DNA of 13,097 nucleotides, taken from Terrimicrobiaceae bacterium (GTDB lineage Bacteria > Verrucomicrobiota > Verrucomicrobiia > Chthoniobacterales > Terrimicrobiaceae). This document shows positions 1,983 through 9,700 of this stretch, one piece after another. A model generated the notes under the pieces. That model had not been told where the DNA came from and made no database searches. It saw nothing but the letters and a program-made list of their open reading frames with translations. Location: assembly GCA_044342325.1 (NCBI GenBank), contig JBIIPZ010000061.1:1-13097 (forward strand). The letters are read 5' to 3'. Position 1 is the first letter of the stretch. Each line of letters opens with the position of its first letter. The position numbers were made by a program, and so were the translations under genes.

Positions 1983-3428
1983 ATGTCCCGTTTTCCTCTG
2001 ATTGCCCTCGCCTTCCTCTGCTCGGTCGCCGCGCTGAATGCCGTGGAAATTTCGAAAAGCCTCGTCCGGATCGAGGCGACTTCGCAAGAACCGAACTACA
2101 AAACCCCATGGAGCCCCGGGGATGTTTCCTCGGGAGTAGGCGCGGGATTTGTTGTTGATGGCAAACGCATCATGACGAACGCCCATGTCGTAAGTAACGC
2201 GCGCTTCCTCACCGTCTCTAAGGAAGGGGATCCGAACCCGTATCTCGCGAAAGTCCTCCACATCGCCCACGACTGCGACCTCGCCCTACTGAGCGTGGAA
2301 AACCCGGCATTCTTCAAAAGCACCGCCCCTCTGGAATTCGGCGGCATACCAGATATTGAATCCGTCGTGTCCGCCTATGGATACCCGGTCGGCGGCACAC
2401 GCCTGTCCGTGACGCGTGGCATTGTGTCACGCATCGACTTCCAGCCCTACTCGCACTCCGGCATGGATTCCCACCTCGCCATACAGATCGATGCAGCCAT
2501 CAATCCCGGCAACAGCGGTGGACCAGTGATGCAGAATAGCAAGGTCGTAGGCGTCGCATTTCAAGGCTACAGCGGAGATGTCGCACAGAATGTGGGCTAT
2601 ATGATTCCCACACCGGTGATCCAGCGGTTTTTGAAGGATGTGCAGGATGGCCACTACGACCACTATGTGGATTTGGCCCTGACCTACCGCAACCTCTTCA
2701 ATCCCGCCTCCCGCCGTGCGCTGGGCCTCGAAGATGAGACCACCGGCGTCCAAGTGTGCAGCGTTTACAGCGGAGGCGCAGCCGATGGCATCCTAAAGCC
2801 TGGTGATGTGATTTTGAAAATCGACGGGCACACCGTGTCGAGCGATGGCACCATTCCGCTGGAGAACGAGGCCGTGCCATTGGACGAGGTGGTGGAGAGG
2901 AAATTCAAAGGCGACAAGGTCGAACTCGAAATCCTCCGCAAGGGGAAACCCATGTCTGTCACCGTGCAACTCAATGAACCCTGGCCATTCAAACTCCAAA
3001 GCAACCTCTACGACGAGAAGCCCCGCTTCGTCGTCGCAGGCGGCCTGGTCTTCCAGCCGGTGGATCAGAATTTCATGGATGCGCACGACCCGTCCGACCA
3101 GCGCTTGAACTACATTTTCGACTACTTCATTGCCGATCAATTGCACACCAACCGCCCGGAGATCGTTGTTCTCAGCAACATCCTGCCCGATCCCGTGAAC
3201 GCCTACGCCGAGGAATTCCGCTACTCCGTCGTAGACGAAGTCAACGGCCGCCGCATCAAAAGCATCGAAGACATCGCCTCAGCCTTCGACGAGCAGGCCG
3301 ACTGCTATGTCATCAAATTCGCTGGCGGAGGACGCCCACTTGTCCTGGAGCGCAAAGCCATAGAAGAGGCCCGCCCGCGCATTCGCGAGCGCTACGATGT
3401 CACGGCGGAGAAAAACCTCAAAAAATGA
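1983..3428 (+). CDS. Exported trypsin-like serine protease, HtrA/Deg family (Deg2/Deg9-like, protease plus two PDZ-type domains)
   Basis: Signal peptide MSRFPLIALAFLCSVAALNA. Intact triad: TNAHV (H68), DCDLA (D99), DAAINPGNSGGP (S178). PDZ motif LKPGDVILKIDG and second-PDZ motif GGLVFQP. Confidence 0.93.
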   Translation: MSRFPLIALAFLCSVAALNAVEISKSLVRIEATSQEPNYKTPWSPGDVSSGVGAGFVVDGKRIMTNAHVVSNARFLTVSKEGDPNPYLAKVLHIAHDCDLALLSVENPAFFKSTAPLEFGGIPDIESVVSAYGYPVGGTRLSVTRGIVSRIDFQPYSHSGMDSHLAIQIDAAINPGNSGGPVMQNSKVVGVAFQGYSGDVAQNVGYMIPTPVIQRFLKDVQDGHYDHYVDLALTYRNLFNPASRRALGLEDETTGVQVCSVYSGGAADGILKPGDVILKIDGHTVSSDGTIPLENEAVPLDEVVERKFKGDKVELEILRKGKPMSVTVQLNEPWPFKLQSNLYDEKPRFVVAGGLVFQPVDQNFMDAHDPSDQRLNYIFDYFIADQLHTNRPEIVVLSNILPDPVNAYAEEFRYSVVDEVNGRRIKSIEDIASAFDEQADCYVIKFAGGGRPLVLERKAIEEARPRIRERYDVTAEKNLKK

Positions 3429-4915
3429 AATCCATCCACCTCCAGCGAGCCGCCTGGCTTGCCCTCGTCCTTTTACTGGCCATTCAGTCGGCACCTGCGG
3501 ATGACGATAACTCCGCGTCGGCATCTGCCTCGAAATCCCTGCTACGCGTGAACTCGACGAATCAGGTTTACGAGTTTTTCCAACCATGGATTAAAAAGCC
3601 CCCCTTCAGCAGGCGCGGAATCGGCGCACTGATTGATGGCGGTCGCATTCTGGTCACAGCCGAACTCGTGGCGAACTCGACATTCATCGAGCTTGAAAAA
3701 CCCGCCACAGCCGAAAAATCCACCGCCACTGTGGAGCTCGTCGATTACGACTGTAACCTCGCCGTCCTACGCCCCGCAGATTCCGCCTTCCTCGCCGACA
3801 TGCAACCCCTCACTTTGAACGGGCCCTTGAAGGTCGGCGACGAGGCCACCATCCTCCAACTTGAGCCAAATGGAGACATCGCTCAAACCCTCGGCCGCAT
3901 CACTTCCATCAGCGTCGCCGGTTATCCCTCCGAGTCGGGATCCCTCCTCCTCTTAAAACTCGGAGCACCCATCCAACAAAGGGATGGCAGCTTCACCCTG
4001 CCCGCAGTTCGGGATGGCCGCCTCATCGGCATGGTCATGCGCTACGACGCCCGAAACCAATCTGCAGACATCGTTCCAACCGCTGTGATCCGCCATTTTC
4101 TGGCTGAAGTCGATTCACCAACCTACCAAGGCTTCGCCCGCCTCGGCGTGGCCTTCGCCCCGCTCCGCGATCCGCAACTCCGCCGCTACATCGGCCTCAA
4201 AGAACCAGGAGGCATCTATGTCGCCGATATCACCCCGCGAGGCTCAGCCGATGCCGCAGGGATCAAAAAAGGCGATGTGATCCTGGCGGTGGATGGACTT
4301 CCTCTCGACCAAGACGGCAACTACGAGGACCCGGACTACGGCCGCATCCTCTTCAGCCATCTCACCAACACCATCAAACACCCCGGCGCCGTCCTCCCGC
4401 TCAAAATCCTCCGCGACGGCAAGACACTCGAGATTCCCGTCACCATGCAGGTCGCAAATCGAGACCACGCCATCAGCGAGACCCACCTCTCCGACGAGGC
4501 CCCGAAATATGTCATCTTAGGCGGCCTCGTTTTCATCGAACTCTCGCGCCCCTACCTCAAGGAATGGGGAAGCAAATGGGCATCCACCGCACCGCAGCGC
4601 CTGGTTTACTATGATGCCTTCCAAAACGAACTCCCCGCCGACCGTGGCCGCATCATCATCCTCTCCCAAGTCCTCCCCACCCCCGATACCATCGGCTACG
4701 AAGACCTCGAGAATATCGTCGTCACCAAAGTGAACGGCCAGCCGATCAAAAGCCTCGCCGACTTGTCCGAAGCCGCAAAAAAACCGGTCGATGGATTCCA
4801 TAAAATCGAGTTTGAAGAAGACCCGAAACTCCTCTTTCTCGACGCCAATTCAATTCAATCCAATGCCGACGAACTGAAAAAACATTACTCACTCCCCGCA
4901 TTGGAACGCCTTTGA
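3425..4915 (+). CDS. Exported Deg/HtrA paralogue with degenerate catalytic triad (probable pseudoprotease) and PDZ domains
   Basis: Collinear with the upstream protease (SKSLLRVNST vs SKSLVRIEAT; IKKGDVILAVDG; GGLVFIEL), but has VTAELV for TNAHV, DCNLA for DCDLA and RDGSFTLP for PGNSGGP. It has its own signal peptide and an ATGA overlap with the upstream stop. Confidence 0.88.
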   Translation: MKSIHLQRAAWLALVLLLAIQSAPADDDNSASASASKSLLRVNSTNQVYEFFQPWIKKPPFSRRGIGALIDGGRILVTAELVANSTFIELEKPATAEKSTATVELVDYDCNLAVLRPADSAFLADMQPLTLNGPLKVGDEATILQLEPNGDIAQTLGRITSISVAGYPSESGSLLLLKLGAPIQQRDGSFTLPAVRDGRLIGMVMRYDARNQSADIVPTAVIRHFLAEVDSPTYQGFARLGVAFAPLRDPQLRRYIGLKEPGGIYVADITPRGSADAAGIKKGDVILAVDGLPLDQDGNYEDPDYGRILFSHLTNTIKHPGAVLPLKILRDGKTLEIPVTMQVANRDHAISETHLSDEAPKYVILGGLVFIELSRPYLKEWGSKWASTAPQRLVYYDAFQNELPADRGRIIILSQVLPTPDTIGYEDLENIVVTKVNGQPIKSLADLSEAAKKPVDGFHKIEFEEDPKLLFLDANSIQSNADELKKHYSLPALERL

Positions 4916-4921
4916 TCAACC

Positions 4922-5785
4922 ATGAAAACCGCACTCACCCTACTCCTCCTCGCCGCACTCACCCTGCACGCCGACGAATCGCTGCAGACATTTCCAAGCT
5001 GCACACTCGTGGAGGCAGATTGGGCGGATGGCGACAGCTTCCCGGTTAAGCTTCCCGATGGACGCCAGATTACTGCCCGCCTCTACGGCGCGGACTGCAT
5101 CGAGTGGCATGTGAACGACGAATCCCTCGCCCGCCGCCTCCGCGCCCAGCGGCGCTATTTCGGCATCGCGGACACCGATGCCACCTCATCGATGAAAACC
5201 GCCCGCGATTTCGGAAAGCAAGCCGCCCTCCGCACCCGCGAACTCCTCGCCAAACCCTTCACCGTCCACACCGCATTCGCCGGAGCCCGGGGCAACGGAG
5301 AAAAAGAACGCGCCTACGCCTTTGTCACCACAGCCGAAGGTAAAGACCTCGCAACCATCCTCGTGGAAGATGGGCTGGCACGCGCCTTCGGCGTCACCCG
5401 CCAACTTCCAGACGGCACATCCGGCAACGAATACCGGGACGCACTCGCCGACCTCGAACTCACTGCCGCCGCCGCCAAAAAAGGCATCTGGGCCGTCACC
5501 GACTGGACCCACATTGCAAAAGACCGCGCCGAGGAACGCCGCGAATCCGCCGATCTCCAAACAGTCCTGAAAGACTCCCAATCCACCACCGCCATCAACC
5601 CGAATACCGCCACAGCCGAGGAACTCGAATCCCTCCCCGGTATCGGCAAAAAACTCGCCGAACGCATCATAGAGGCCCGAACCACAAAACCCCTCACCTC
5701 AATCGACGACCTTCTCGCCATCAAAGGCATCACCCCAAAACTCATCGAATCCCTCACGCCAAAAATCCAGTTCACCACCCCATAA
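4922..5785 (+). CDS. Exported thermonuclease (SNase-like) fused to a ComEA-type helix-hairpin-helix DNA-binding domain
   Basis: Signal peptide MKTALTLLLLAALTLHA. SNase motifs DGDSF, RLYGADCIE, RAYAFV, LVEDGLA and KKGIW. C-terminal INPNTATAEELESLPGIGKKLAERII...LLAIKGI is a ComEA HhH pair. Confidence 0.88.
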   Translation: MKTALTLLLLAALTLHADESLQTFPSCTLVEADWADGDSFPVKLPDGRQITARLYGADCIEWHVNDESLARRLRAQRRYFGIADTDATSSMKTARDFGKQAALRTRELLAKPFTVHTAFAGARGNGEKERAYAFVTTAEGKDLATILVEDGLARAFGVTRQLPDGTSGNEYRDALADLELTAAAAKKGIWAVTDWTHIAKDRAEERRESADLQTVLKDSQSTTAINPNTATAEELESLPGIGKKLAERIIEARTTKPLTSIDDLLAIKGITPKLIESLTPKIQFTTP

Positions 5786-5981
5786 CGCCCCGCGTGTCAG
5801 CGCGTATCGTCGATGGGAGGACCATCGTCCCACATGGCCCATATTTCAGCCGCGCAGCGGCGTCTGTCTTCGCGTGGCATCGAAAAAAATCCCCGCACTC
5901 CGTGTCAAAATTTGGGCCATGCCGGAGGATGGCCCTCCAAAATTCACAAATCGTCAACCACCCCATTTTCCTCACGGGCCC

Positions 5982-6009
5982 TTGCGTTTCATCAATGCTG
6001 CCGTAGTCT
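5982..6009 (+). promoter_or_regulatory. Putative sigma70-type promoter of the leader/Cys-rich peptide unit
   Basis: TTGCGT (5982-5987), 16 nt, TAGTCT (6004-6009), 6 nt before GTG 6016. No SD. Confidence 0.5.
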
Positions 6010-6015
6010 GAATTC

Positions 6016-6354
6016 GTGAATTGGCATCTGCGCGCAGGAATGGTTTGTATGGCTCTTATCGCCGTATCGGTGCTGGGCATTGCATTGCCGACCGAGATGC
6101 TTTCGAGTCCAGTCGTGGAGGTCGCGTCCTGTTGCTGCCCCGGGCTTCATTCCCCACCGGCGGCGAGCGCGGCGTCCGCATCCTCCTGTGCGTGCCATGT
6201 CTGCCCGGTTGCGCCCCATTTGCTTGCTGTCGTTGCGATGCAGGATTTCAAGCTCTCGCCGCCGCTGGTCGCGCATTGCTGGACCAACCGCGACGAATCC
6301 GCTCCGGGCTTCTGCCCCGAGCCGGCCACACCACCACCGCGCACGGCAGCCTGA
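6016..6354 (+). CDS. Cys-rich exported leader protein with C-terminal Pro-rich motif (CutF/CruR/DUF2946-like putative arrest peptide)
   Basis: 112 aa: signal/TM segment (MNWHLRAGMVCMALIAVSVLGIA), CCC and CACHVC clusters, about 38-aa linker, terminal PEPATPPPRTAA. Alternative in-frame ATGs at 6040 and 6049. Confidence 0.7.
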   Translation: MNWHLRAGMVCMALIAVSVLGIALPTEMLSSPVVEVASCCCPGLHSPPAASAASASSCACHVCPVAPHLLAVVAMQDFKLSPPLVAHCWTNRDESAPGFCPEPATPPPRTAA

Positions 6355-6418
6355 CTTTGCGCCGGGGCCTGATTCTTTTTCAGGCCGTCACTTCTCAAAA
6401 ATTCCATTCAGAAAGGAA
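6343..6418 (+). promoter_or_regulatory. Putative translational switch: alternative stems and SD of the downstream gene
   Basis: TCAGGCC(GT) 6380-6388 can pair with GGCCTGA 6366-6372 or with ACGG-cag-CCTGA 6343-6354. TTCTTTTT 6373-6380 can pair (2 G-U) with GAAAGGAA 6411-6418, which contains the SD. Confidence 0.5.
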
Positions 6419-6422
6419 AATT

Positions 6423-6578
6423 ATGAAATCATTCATTCTCGCCATCGCTCTGGCCTGCGCCGCAGTGGTTGGTTCTGTTCAAGCCGCCGGGACTTCGTGC
6501 CCGAAATGCTGCAAGGACAAGGACTGCGCCACCTGCTGCAAAGGCAAGTGCTCCGAGTGCAAACAGTGCAATAAGTAA
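6423..6578 (+). CDS. Small exported Cys-rich, metallothionein-like peptide (51 aa)
   Basis: MKSFILAIALACAAVVGSVQA|AGTSCPKCCKDKDCATCCKGKCSECKQCNK. Clear SD (GAAAGGA 6411-6417), Sec signal with VQA cleavage site, 9 Cys in 30 mature residues, downstream terminator. Confidence 0.85.
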   Translation: MKSFILAIALACAAVVGSVQAAGTSCPKCCKDKDCATCCKGKCSECKQCNK

Positions 6579-6603
6579 CGCGCTCGAAATGGCATAAATC
6601 GCC

Positions 6604-6641
6604 AACGCGGCTCTCCGAAAGGGGGGCCGCGTTTATTTTTT
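6604..6641 (+). terminator. Intrinsic terminator
   Basis: AACGCGGCTCTCC-gaaa-GGGGGGCCGCGTT (13 bp including 2 G-U, GNRA loop) followed by TATTTTTT. Confidence 0.88.
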
Positions 6642-6671
6642 GGCCGATGCACAAGATCGCGAGCCGACCAT

Positions 6672-6701
6672 TCGACAAAGAGGCAGGCGTTGCGGTATTG
6701 T
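6672..6701 (+). promoter_or_regulatory. Putative sigma70-type promoter of dnaE
   Basis: TCGACA (6672-6677), 18 nt, TATTGT (6696-6701), 6 nt before ATG 6708. No SD. Confidence 0.5.
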
Positions 6702-6707
6702 CCCGGG

Positions 6708-9700
6708 ATGTCATTCGTTCACCTGCATTGCCACTCCGAGTTTTCCCTTCTGGACGGAGCTGTGCGGTTGGATGAATTGGTAAAAAAAGCGGCGGGATTC
6801 GGGATGCCGGCCGTGGCCGTGACGGATCACGGCAACCTGCATGCGGCGGTGCCGTTTTATCAGCAAGCTGAGAAGAAAGGGATCAAGCCGATCATCGGAT
6901 GCGAGATGTATGTCGCACCGGGCTCGATGACCGATAAGAGCGGCTCCTCTGCGAAGGATGCCGCATTTCATCTCACGCTGTTGGCGACAAACGACGAAGG
7001 TTACCGGAATCTCGTGAAGCTCTCCACGGCTGGGTATCTCGAGGGCTTTTACTACAAACCCCGCGTAGACAGAGAGCGTTTGGCCGCGCATTCGAAAGGC
7101 ATTATCGCCCTCAGTGGCTGCCTGAAGGGCGAGGTCGCGACGCTATTGCAATCGGGACGCTTCGACGAGGCGCAGGCGACGGCGGCGGCCTATCGGGAAA
7201 TTTTCGGCGCAGAGAACTACTTCATCGAACTCCACGATTTCGGCCTTGATGCGCAGCGGCGAATCAATCCCGACCTGGTGAAAATCGCGCGCAACCTCGA
7301 TCTCGGCTTGGTTGCCGCGAACGATGTCCACTTTCTGGAGAAGTCGCACCACGAAGCCCACGATGTGCTCATCTGCATCGGCACCGCATCGAATGTTGTG
7401 GATGAAAGGCGCATGCGCTACAGCCCCGAACTGTATTTCAAATCCCCCGAGGAGATGCGCGCCCTTTTCGCCGAGCTTCCCGAGGCGTGCGACAACACCC
7501 TACGCATTGCCGAGAGATGTGATTTCAAGATGGAATTCGGCAAACCGAAATACCCGAATTTCGACTCGCCCGACACGCGCAGCCGCGAGCAATACCTGCG
7601 CGATCTCTGCCATGAGGGTCTCCGCAAGCGGTTTGGCGAACGGGTGGATACCGATGCCGAGCTGAACAAGCGCCTCGATTACGAACTCTCGGTGATCGAG
7701 AAAACAGGATTCATCAGCTACTTTTTGATCGTCTGGGATTTCATCCGCCATGCGAAAGACAGCGGTATTCCCGTGGGCCCGGGGCGCGGCTCGGCGGCAG
7801 GCTCCCTCATCGCGTATGTGCTGGGAATCACGGATATCGACCCTCTCCGCTATGGACTGATTTTTGAAAGGTTCCTGAACCCCGAGCGCGTCAGCCCGCC
7901 GGATATCGATGTGGACTTCTGCATGGAACGCCGAGGCGAAGTCATCGAGTATGTGCGCCAAAAATACGGCGAACGAGCGGTGTCGCAGATCGTCACCTTC
8001 GGCACGCTGGGCGCGAAGAGCGTGATCCGCGATGTCGCCCGCGTGCTGGGCTGGAGCTACTCGGACGGCGACCGCGTGGCAAAGATGATCCCGAACGAGC
8101 TGAATATCGACCTCGAGAAGGCCCGCGAAAAGAACCCCGAACTCGACACAGCCATCGAAAACGAAGCGCCCGTTCGCCAACTCTGGGACTACGCCACCGT
8201 GCTCGAGGGCCTGAGCCGCAATACCGGCATCCACGCCGCCGGCGTCGTCATCGGCGATCGTCCGCTCGATGAATTCATTCCCCTCTGCCGAGGCAAGGAA
8301 AACGAAGTCGTCACGCAATACGCCATGGGCCCGCTCACCGATCTGGGAATGCTCAAGATGGACTTCCTCGGCCTGCGCACGCTCACGATCATGCAGGAGG
8401 CGGTGCGTCTGATCCACGCGAAGGTGCCGGACTTTAACATCGACCTCATCCCCAGCGACGACAAAACCTCCTTTGATATCTACAACCGGGGCGAAACACT
8501 CGGCGTCTTCCAGATGGAAAGCGGCGGCATCACGAATTGCTGCAAGCGCTTTGATGTCGGCTGCATCGAGGACATCATCGCCATCGGCGCGCTTTATCGG
8601 CCAGGCCCGATGCAGTTCATCGACGACTACATCGAGCGCAAAAAGGGCATCAAAAAGGTGGAATACCTGCATCCGCTCCTCGAAAAGGTCTGCTCCGAGA
8701 CGCACGGCATCATTGTCTATCAAGAGCAGGTGCAGATGGCTGCGAGCGTGCTTGCGGGCTACTCGCTCGGCGAGGCCGATTTGCTCCGCCGCGCGATGGG
8801 CAAGAAGGATGCCGAGAAGATGGAAAAGGAGCGCAAACGCTTCGTCGAAGGCTGCGGCACACACAACAACATTCCTCCCAAGGTCGCCGATGCCATCTTC
8901 GGCTTCATCGAAAAATTCGCGCAATACGGCTTCAACAAATCCCACAGCGCCGCCTATGGCTGGATTTCCTACCAGACCGCCTACCTCAAGGCCCACTTCC
9001 CGCGTGAGTTCATGTCCGCCATGCTCACCTTCGACGCCAACGATACCGACCGCCTGGCCGTTGTCATCGCCGAGTGCCGCCGCATGGAGATTCCCGTGCT
9101 GCCGCCAGACATCAACGCCAGTGCGCTGAAGTTCGCACCCGAGACCGACGGCCCAGGAATTCGCTTCGGGCTGGCATCCATAAAAAATGTAGGTGCGGGC
9201 GCGATGGAGTCCGCCATTGCCGAGAGGGAAAAAAACGGCGCCTTCCGCACGCTGGAGAATTTCTGCTCTCGCCTCGATTCCCGCACGGTGAACCGCAAAA
9301 TTCTCGAGAGCCTTGTGAAATGCGGCGCCTTCGACTGCCTCGACAAAAACCGAGCCGCACTCTTCGCCGAGATCGAATCCTCCATGGCCGCCGCCGCCTC
9401 ACTCCAGCGCGACCGCGCGAGCGGACAGTTCTCACTCTTTGGAGACACCCCACTCACACCGCCGAAAAAATCCTCCAGTGCAGCAAGGATCGAGCCTTGG
9501 AGCAATTTGGACACCCTCAAGCACGAGAAGGAACTCCTCGGCTACTATGTGAGCGGACACCCCCTCGACAGCTACGCAGGGAATTTTGACTCGGGAAAAT
9601 ACAACACCATAGCCCAAGCCCGCGAAGCTACCGAGCCCGGCACATTCAAGCTCGCGGGACTGATCATGTCCGTCGAGAAGCGCTTTTCCAAAAAGGACGG

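Follow-up and report, generated by a model that had tools for sequence, protein, structure and literature searches.

The window analyzed here, a 13,097-nucleotide (nt) stretch of contig JBIIPZ010000061.1 from a Terrimicrobiaceae bacterium in the phylum Verrucomicrobiota, carries a two-gene unit that consists of a leader open reading frame (ORF) of 112 amino acids (aa) and, directly downstream, an ORF for a 51-aa Cys-rich peptide with an export signal. Comparison with related loci shows that both genes are real, conserved and linked, and that the arrest-like motif at the C-terminus of the predicted leader matches that of CutF, encoded in cutFOG of Rhodobacter capsulatus. The reading that we favor, with a probability of roughly 0.55, is that a CutF-type, Sec-coupled and metal-sensitive arrest leader controls production of an exported metallothionein-like peptide. 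From the analysis as a whole we infer export, stalling, the metal ligand, the ON direction of control and chelation.

Conserved motifs of the leader

The leader reads M(GTG)NWHLRAG-MVCMALIAVSVLGIAL-PTEMLSS...CCC...CACHVCP...ESAPGFCPEPATPPPRTAA (positions in Table 1). Its N-terminus is composed of a charged n-region (H4 and R6), an 18-residue hydrophobic core and then P-T-E, with a 15-residue Kyte-Doolittle maximum of 2.8 at residues 10-24, and this charged, hydrophobic character is conserved at the protein level. Judged by charge and hydropathy only, the region may act as a signal that is cleaved off or as a signal-anchor.

The motifs were counted over 23 sequences, taken from the window, 10 genome loci and 12 database proteins, with some overlap possible. 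The CCC motif is invariant. In CxCHxCP, the Cys and Pro residues are invariant and the His is replaced in 2 of the 23 sequences. H45, W89 and the segment A96-P-G-F-x-P-E-P-x-T-P-P-P-R109 are likewise invariant or nearly so. PEPxxPPPR is kept in all 23 sequences, each time with exactly three residues after the Arg, and in every one of them (23/23) C63 and the first Pro of PPP are 42 residues apart; the gap between CCC and CxC varies from 13 to 16 residues. Nucleotide changes in the C-terminal segment are almost all synonymous. Even in the most distant relative, at 46% identity, CCC, CxCxxCP and APGFxPEPxTPPPR with the three following residues persist. The alignment shows strong selection, at the amino acid level, on the motifs, their spacing and the three-residue tail. 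Fixed distances to the stop codon and to the Cys motif, together with about 17 invariant C-terminal residues, are the pattern expected of a translocation-coupled arrest element.

Translation and selection of the leader frame

Two other plus-strand frames over the leader DNA are open (185 aa and 164 aa), so that openness alone proves nothing and the evidence for the leader must be conservation. A word-indexed search of 5.8 billion proteins gave 39 candidates. Of these, 12 are relatives of the leader, 11 of them colinear with it at 69-89% identity and one (P0012) mis-framed, and P0018, at 46% identity, was added by the family profile. Frame and motifs are kept in 12 database relatives at 46-89% identity. 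Among 185,579 species genomes scanned, a pattern was matched 119 times; 10 of the matches encode a leader relative, and all 10 of these genomes are metagenome-assembled genomes titled Terrimicrobiaceae, Spartobacteria or Verrucomicrobia. The leader, a spacer of 67-68 nt, the peptide gene and the terminator occur together in 10/10 genome loci. A sequence-only reading of the window had proposed a leader, spacer, peptide and terminator arranged as one unit; all of these elements are found where it placed them, and both the gene order and the Cys and PPPR motifs within the leader frame are kept in the homologues.

The pooled pairwise ratio of nonsynonymous to synonymous divergence (dN/dS) of the leader is about 0.30, and its silent-site divergence (pS) is 0.30, compared with 0.325 for dnaE. 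Variable columns are biased toward the third codon position (41/32/70 at positions 1/2/3; 4/4/14 in the last 20 codons). Among these genomes the leader is 65-88% identical, while the neighboring proteins are 85-98% identical; judging from this comparison, the leader evolves fast outside its motifs. The conservation of frame and motifs, the dN/dS and the third-position-biased variation together indicate that the leader frame is translated and under purifying selection. That the 112-aa frame is a chance opening in G+C-rich DNA, with the peptide as the only gene, is scarcely credible. The other open frames and a mis-framed database call are what such a view can draw on, but a pS equal to that of dnaE, a dN/dS of 0.30, the codon-position bias and the retention of the motifs at 46% identity all contradict it. 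The call in question, P0012, is a 166-aa "hypothetical protein" whose first part is the leader and whose remainder is read in a different frame through the spacer and the peptide gene, a frameshifted entry that illustrates how the unit becomes mis-annotated.

The leader could instead encode a stable protein, which might be a membrane-anchored or periplasmic metallochaperone, a partner in thiol redox chemistry or a factor for immunity to the peptide or for its maturation, and which is co-transcribed with the peptide and whose Pro-rich end is a structural or interaction motif. Purifying selection acts over the whole length (dN/dS 0.30) and not on the end alone, residues in the middle of the protein (F78, L80-S-P82 and W89) are conserved, and a chaperone role was the first to be considered for CutF in 2021 (PMC8456105). 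Yet the strongest conservation lies in the last 16-17 residues, with a fixed three-residue tail and a fixed spacing of 42 residues, which is the signature of tunnel and translocon geometry, and the same motif in CutF is described as acting in cis through stalling, CutF itself not being detectable as a protein (10.1101/2025.02.05.636593). We consider a stable product rather improbable.

Start codon and promoter of the leader

Annotation pipelines were expected by the sequence-only reading to miss both genes. This was overstated, since several sources call both as hypothetical proteins; the leader is nevertheless usually 11 codons short, being called in most databases as 101 aa from ATG 6049. 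The 11 codons 5' of this ATG (V-N-R/W-H-L-R-A-G-M-V-C) are conserved as protein, with changes that are synonymous or conservative (CTG/TTA, CGC/CGA, GGA/GGG, TGT/TGC). Because of this conservation, because one locus (L009) has ATA at the position of ATG 6049, and because the window and 9/10 loci have GTG 6016, this codon is favored as the start. In another locus (L010:1-200), the leader lacks the N-terminal signal region, and the sequence 5' of the codon equivalent to M28 is unrelated; the match begins 125 nt from the contig end, and the case represents either a variant naturally devoid of the signal or a join introduced by the assembly.

Conservation among the loci starts about 50 nt 5' of the GTG, despite differing upstream neighbors. 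The promoter-like motif of the sequence-only reading does lie at the start of this conserved block, as TTGCGT, 16 nt and then TA(G/T)nnT across loci. As a promoter it is less convincing: by our own count it matches the sigma-70 consensus at 6/12 positions, and a promoter scan did not call the 5982-6009 block. No Shine-Dalgarno sequence precedes GTG 6016. Since the block ends 6 nt before the GTG, the leader mRNA would possibly be leaderless or nearly so.

The predicted exported Cys-rich peptide

The 51-aa precursor consists of a signal peptide, MKSFILAIALACAAVVGSVQA (residues 1-21), and a mature part of 30 aa, AGTSCPKCCKDKDCATCCKGKCSECKQCNK; the signal peptide is predicted to be of type I and to be cleaved between VQA and AG. 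The mature peptide contains nine Cys (about 30%) in CC/CxC/CxxC arrays, seven Lys and three acidic residues, and it lacks aromatic residues and His, a composition that qualifies as that of a metallothionein. All nine mature Cys are invariant in 6/6 sequences (the window and five relatives at 65-98% identity). The Shine-Dalgarno sequence of the gene is AAGGA at 6413-6417.

The silent sites of this gene should be noted. Its dN/dS is 0.18 and its pS only 0.10, third positions vary in 10/51 codons as against 70/112 in the leader, and all the Cys codons are TGC. The spacer, which is 68 nt in 10/11 sequences and 67 nt in L006, is about 90% identical between loci against a neutral divergence of about 30% (pS of dnaE and the leader). 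At silent or non-coding positions, the evolution of spacer and peptide ORF is thus about three times slower than that of the leader or dnaE. The low pS shows nucleotide-level constraint on the peptide ORF, as there is on the spacer, and this could reflect codon bias for high expression or a role of the RNA.

The bacterial metallothioneins SmtA/BmtA, PmtA and MymT share the high Cys content, the CC/CxC/CxxC spacing and the lack of aromatic residues. The known bacterial metallothioneins are cytosolic and have no signal peptide. Among the literature matches listed, none is an exported bacterial metallothionein, and PmtA of Pseudomonas is the sole bacterial match listed in phrase searches. Cys-based copper storage outside the cytoplasm exists in the exported Csp1-type copper storage proteins; these are four-helix bundles of about 120 aa exported by the twin-arginine translocation (Tat) pathway, unlike a 30-residue Sec peptide.

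Some other assignments were discarded. The peptide is not read as a lipoprotein, the Cys in the signal peptide being absent from P0016 and P0017, nor as the precursor of a ribosomally synthesized and post-translationally modified peptide, given a Sec signal and no modifying enzyme nearby. A match to Metallothio_11 (E 0.18) in 1 of the 13 leader family members is regarded as noise.

Comparison with known arrest leaders

CutF is a 118-aa protein with a cleavable Sec signal, the motif C69xxHC73 and the C-terminal sequence P109-EPEGPPPRL-118, as described in a preprint (10.1101/2025.02.05.636593) and in PMC8456105. The sequence-only reading had given CutF the ending PEP-x-x-PPPR, and on this point it agrees with both sources. 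According to the same reports, Cu-dependent CutO production is abolished by deletion of the last ten residues or by changing PPP to PAP (10.1101/2025.02.05.636593; PMC8456105), and Cu binding to the exported motif prolongs arrest during export coupled to the signal recognition particle and Sec (10.1101/2025.02.05.636593; PMC9973294).

The leader resembles CutF in size (112 vs 118 aa), in a putative N-terminal Sec-type signal, in a Cys/His motif within the part predicted to be exported and in PEPxxPPPR near the stop codon (PEPATPPPR vs P109EPEGPPPRL118). The distance from the Cys motif to PPP is 42 residues in the leader and 40 in CutF by the published numbering, and both ORFs lie directly upstream, on the same strand, of the gene for an exported protein with a gap of less than 100 nt. 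On the other hand, no similarity to CutF is detectable outside the motifs. The leader has CCC and CxCHxC where CutF has CxxHC, and three residues follow the Arg instead of one. Its spacer hairpin contains neither a Shine-Dalgarno nor an anti-Shine-Dalgarno sequence. The target is a 51-aa Cys-rich peptide and not a multicopper oxidase, the phylum is Verrucomicrobiota, and translation starts at a GTG, possibly on a leaderless mRNA.

CruR (Bp2923) of Bordetella pertussis, the founder of DUF2946, has CXXC, RAPP three residues from the end and 45 intervening residues, and when copper relieves its arrest, Rho terminates transcription within the 162-nt C-rich spacer that precedes the gene for a copper-uptake receptor (PMC9426467). 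Its action is reported to be independent of its signal peptide and of elongation factor P (10.1101/2025.02.05.636593; PMC9426467). The leader is similar to CruR as an upstream ORF with a putative export signal, CxxC, a Pro-containing motif followed by three residues and conserved motif spacing. It differs in lacking RAPP, in a spacing of 42 rather than 45, in having no Pfam match, and in a spacer of 68 nt that is not C-rich.

The arrest peptides SecM, VemP and MifM sense Sec pulling force or export (10.1101/2025.02.05.636593). With them the leader would share a Sec-targeted nascent chain, a C-terminal arrest segment near the stop codon and control of the next cistron, whereas they control Sec or YidC components and sense export, and here the target is a Cys-rich peptide and the motifs resemble metal ligands. 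The RAPP-type arrest peptides ApcA, ApdA and ApdP belong to the same secretion-monitoring group. SilD/CusD/CopL, encoded by small ORFs that precede metal efflux or oxidase genes and listed in PMC9973294 as CutF-like, are small exported Cys/His proteins with PPPR near the C-terminus that head metal-resistance operons. SilD differs in that 10 further residues follow PPPR and in that it precedes a resistance-nodulation-division (RND) efflux operon; SilD of pMOL30 is labeled on the CutF-like network of PMC9973294.

The passages of PMC9973294 cited here place next to CutF-like genes those for efflux components, TonB-like proteins, PCuAC chaperones, CusF and HupE/UreJ, as well as nitrous-oxide reductase genes, but name no small Cys-rich peptide with an export signal; a target of this type was not known to the sequence-only reading either. 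Nor does such a target appear among the literature matches listed for CutF-like proteins or DUF2946. The words "Metallothionein" and "Verrucomicrob" each have 0 occurrences in the main text of PMC9973294.

Proposed mechanism

In the reading that we favor, the N-terminal signal or anchor would target the translating ribosome and its nascent chain to the Sec translocon. Once the ribosome stood at the PPP codons (6331-6339), CxCHxCP, 42 residues back, would be near the periplasmic exit of SecY and CCC would already be outside. Binding of a thiophilic metal would then lower the pulling force and prolong the arrest at APGFCPEPATPPPR; Cu(I) is the most likely ligand, and Ag, Cd, Zn and Hg are also candidates. 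The arrest would raise the output of the downstream gene, and the Sec-exported 30-residue peptide would serve as a periplasmic or extracellular metallothionein-like metal sink.

Family membership and spacer RNA

A number of results weigh against this reading, and those from database searches are considered here first. No family in Pfam (E<=1) or NCBIfam matches the leader. The sequence-only reading had pointed to DUF2946, but membership by sequence is not supported: 0/13 family members match PF11162 at E<=10. A phmmer search of 1.84 billion representatives with the leader returned one protein, which belongs to its own cluster, and a search with the family profile (E<=10), in which 6781 candidates were scored, kept 13, all of its own family. 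In an hhalign comparison of the leader family with SilD of pMOL30, PPPR alone was aligned, with a probability of 0.5%. Besides these, a tblastn search of 72,556 plasmids gave no match, and in the ESM Atlas the nearest clusters of the leader are unnamed (0.96), DUF6660 appearing at rank 20 as a lead only.

The definitions used for the known leaders give a divided picture. The leader has the CXXC of DUF2946/CruR (C60-H-V-C63, invariant in 23/23), but at the position of RAPP it has A-T-P-P-P-R, though with the three-residue tail, and the spacing is 42 residues to PPP, or 40 to the A-T-P-P position, and not 45 (+/-1-2). Among the rule-based CutF-like filters described in PMC9973294, the leader agrees in length, in having PP among its last 15 residues, in a same-strand neighbor at less than 100 nt and in a Cys motif. 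By these comparisons the leader falls outside the Pfam and CruR definition and passes the applicable rule-based filters. One filter of the 2021 rule-based CutF search was that a candidate match no known Pfam domain, and a BLAST search with CutF gave relatives in only 10 genomes (PMC8456105). SilD also lacks a Pfam match, so that the missing match alone does not disqualify a protein as CutF-like.

The spacer RNA is a second point of disagreement. The sequence-only reading described the spacer as structured, which is true of one 7-bp hairpin (H1), predicted in every locus folded and the only robust structure of the spacer. The spacer as a whole folds no better than shuffled sequences (z = -0.31, 70/200 shuffles as good). 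In a covariation test that covered three helices, one H1 pair occurs as C-G, U-G and U-A (6/3/2), and the score is reached by 107/500 shuffles, so that the structure is not demonstrated statistically. H1 lies 27 nt 5' of the Shine-Dalgarno sequence and excludes it; only the weak UUCC/GGAA hairpin touches it, and the pairs of that hairpin, being invariant, carry no covariation information.

A ribosome stalled on PPP would reach only about the stop codon. The stalled ribosome was modeled as a 28-nt footprint forced unpaired, with P108 or A112 in the P-site, in eight loci. The predicted accessibility of the Shine-Dalgarno sequence is essentially unchanged in 7/8 of them (0.48 to 0.48 in the window), and the largest effect is found in L003 with the ribosome at the stop codon (0.45 to 0.54). 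Since H1 excludes the Shine-Dalgarno sequence and the footprint leaves its accessibility essentially unchanged in all but one locus, the stem-loop mechanism of CutF, in which the target's Shine-Dalgarno sequence is shielded, is not reproduced in the predicted folds. On this point the sequence-only reading, which took the same logic as in CutF to operate here, is not supported, and the link between arrest and expression is probably not the melting of a stem-loop over the Shine-Dalgarno sequence by the stalled ribosome, as in cutF-cutO. Protection from Rho or from decay, or processing at H1, may provide the link instead.

A more tentative reading takes the unit as a minimal, autonomous metal-defense module in which a possibly leaderless, Sec-targeted arrest peptide would sense thiophilic metal in the periplasm and turn on its own exported metallothionein-like peptide, the coupling being neither Shine-Dalgarno unmasking nor classical Rho polarity. 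The candidate couplings would be arrest-dependent tethering of the bicistronic mRNA at the translocon, or processing at H1, which would leave a stable mRNA for the peptide with a hairpin at each end.

Polarity of the CruR type would give control of the opposite sign: the default stall would protect the transcript, metal would relieve the arrest and cause Rho termination or decay in the spacer, and the peptide would be made under scarcity for metal capture, like a metallophore. Relief of CruR arrest by copper, ending in Rho-dependent termination before the uptake receptor gene, is a precedent (PMC9426467). The leader has a true CxxC (C60-H-V-C63) and exactly three residues after its motif, as CruR has after RAPP, and RNA folds in which no Shine-Dalgarno-unmasking switch appears leave room for a transcriptional or decay mechanism. 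However, the motif is of the CutF type (PEPxxPPPR) and not RAPP, the spacer is short (68 vs 162 nt), and H1 takes up the end of it that is closest to the stop codon. Nor is there a strong Rho-site signature, as the C/G ratio within the spacer does not exceed the 86th percentile of the window. Such reversed control seems unlikely to us.

Two further observations concern the RNA. Within the leader codons for A-P-G-F-C-P-E, just behind the position of a PPP-stalled ribosome, an 8-bp hairpin (6301-6322, GCUC-CGGGC...GCCC-GAGC) is kept in 11/11 sequences, with single unpaired cells in two, and is inseparable from the amino acid constraint. An Rfam search of 5700-6800 gave two matches below the gathering score (E 0.39 and 0.76), which were taken as chance.

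Nature of the peptide

The remaining points against the favored reading concern the peptide and its surroundings. No metallothionein family in Pfam or NCBIfam matches the peptide. An AlphaFold2 model of the peptide, built with six sequences, has a mean predicted local distance difference test (pLDDT) score of 57.6 and is uninformative. In an oxidizing periplasm, thiols may form disulfides instead of binding metal. No metal-related gene lies in the flanks of the unit. Other searches with the peptide gave a weak match of the signal peptide to DUF4148 in Pfam (E 0.18), one chance-level match of the mature peptide among sequences of solved structures in the PDB (E 2.2) and, in the ESM Atlas, nearest clusters that are unnamed (0.83-0.85).

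By composition the peptide could be a metallothionein; a disulfide-rich secreted peptide would be just as consistent with the Sec signal and the net positive charge. The leader might also monitor secretion or oxidative folding rather than metal, with the peptide as a disulfide-rich cationic antimicrobial or envelope product. Defensin-type peptides are cationic and Cys-rich, as is the mature peptide (seven Lys vs three acidic residues) behind its Sec signal. Disulfides in the exported Cys motifs of the leader could supply pulling force, and there are well-known arrest peptides that respond to the pulling force of Sec (10.1101/2025.02.05.636593). Nevertheless, neither the unit nor its flanks contain an immunity gene, a transporter, a Sec component or a Dsb gene, the peptide has no hydrophobic or aromatic residues, and the Cys/His motif at a CutF-like spacing argues for a metal ligand. 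We therefore hold a secretion or folding monitor to be a quite doubtful account.

Genomic setting of the unit

The unit lies directly upstream of dnaE in all 10 loci, and its terminator is kept in all of them; 9 of the 13 stem pairs are G-C, with TATTTTTT directly after the stem. The 5' neighbor varies. It is a ComEA-like gene in the window and in L003, L004 and L007, while in L005 a PIN/Phd toxin-antitoxin pair is inserted upstream of the leader, and the same upstream sequence is found in L001, L006, L008 and L009. This insertion, between the ComEA-like gene and the conserved upstream block, marks the 5' boundary of the unit. Of the inserted pair itself (L005:5206-5879), the toxin has a PIN domain (E 6.9e-8) and the antitoxin resembles Phd/YefM, with an E value of 7.6e-4 that falls short of the Pfam cut-off. 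We take the unit to be a self-contained operon, made up of two genes, in a verrucomicrobium of the Terrimicrobiaceae/Spartobacteria type.

Table 1. Coordinates in the window of the two-gene unit and of the elements within it.
Feature	Position	Strand	Remarks
Two-gene unit	5982-6643	+	About 660 bp, with its own conserved upstream block and its own terminator
Promoter-like block	5982-6009	+	TTGCGT 5982-5987, 16 nt, TAGTCT 6004-6009
Leader ORF	6016-6354	+	112 aa; GTG start at 6016, TGA 6352-6354
CCC motif, C39-C41	6130-6138	+	Invariant
C58-x-C60-H-x-C63-P64	6187-6207	+	CACHVC 6187-6204; contains CxxC (C60-H-V-C63)
C-terminal segment E-S-A-P-G-F-C-P-E-P-A-T-P-P-P-R	6295-6342	+	Near-invariant
PEPATPPPR	6316-6342	+	PPP codons 6331-6339 (residues 106-108); then three codons (residues TAA) and TGA
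Intergenic spacer	6355-6422	+	68 nt
Hairpin H1	6366-6386	+	GGCCUGA / 7-nt loop / UCAGGCC (6366-6372 with 6380-6386); starts 11 nt past the leader stop
Weak 4-bp hairpin	6402-6418	+	UUCC (6402-6405) / GGAA (6415-6418); would cover the Shine-Dalgarno core
Cys-rich peptide ORF	6423-6578	+	51 aa; ATG start at 6423, TAA 6576-6578
Intrinsic terminator	6604-6643	+	13-bp stem (6604-6633), 4-nt loop, T-run

Upstream of the unit, the window encodes ribosomal protein S9, an EpsI-like protein, a GYF-domain protein, two PDZ proteases and a secreted protein in which a nuclease is fused to a ComEA-type domain; the genes downstream are dnaE and those for a Gfo/Idh/MocA oxidoreductase and a TIM-barrel protein. 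The two PDZ genes (1983-4915) are tandem PDZ + PDZ_3 paralogues with a 4-nt overlap and about 28% identity. The first has a clear trypsin-like domain and the second no trypsin-domain match at E<=1e-5, and the second may be a degenerate protease. The fusion protein (4922-5785) has a signal peptide, a staphylococcal-nuclease-like (SNase) domain and a ComEA-type helix-hairpin-helix (HhH) DNA-binding domain. The dnaE ORF is listed from TTG 6690. Since residues 1-6 vary among the loci and conservation begins at M7 (MSFVHLH), its true start is probably ATG 6708.

Implications

Metal sensing by a nascent chain was described only recently, and the two cases studied experimentally, CutF and CruR, are both from Pseudomonadota. 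Taken as a whole, the unit points to, but does not prove, a metal-binding peptide of the periplasm whose production is under metal control. If this is true, the control principle would extend to Verrucomicrobiota, and it would have a new class of output, a secreted metallothionein-like peptide, for which neither PMC9973294 nor PMC9426467, as far as they are cited here, gives an example among the targets. A Sec-exported thiolate peptide of 30 residues would also be an unusual metal buffer for an oxidizing compartment.

The same PEPxxPPPR and a near-identical distance between Cys and PPP, in proteins that cannot otherwise be aligned, bear on the question of which residues the ribosome tunnel reads. 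Should the unit be an autonomous module of the kind outlined above, the PEPxxPPPR shared with an alphaproteobacterial protein would be either very ancient or a convergent solution to force-sensitive arrest. With no stem-loop over the ribosome-binding site, the link between arrest and expression may be of a third type. With two genes in about 660 bp, its own terminator and a putative promoter of its own, the unit is a very compact natural test bed for such control.

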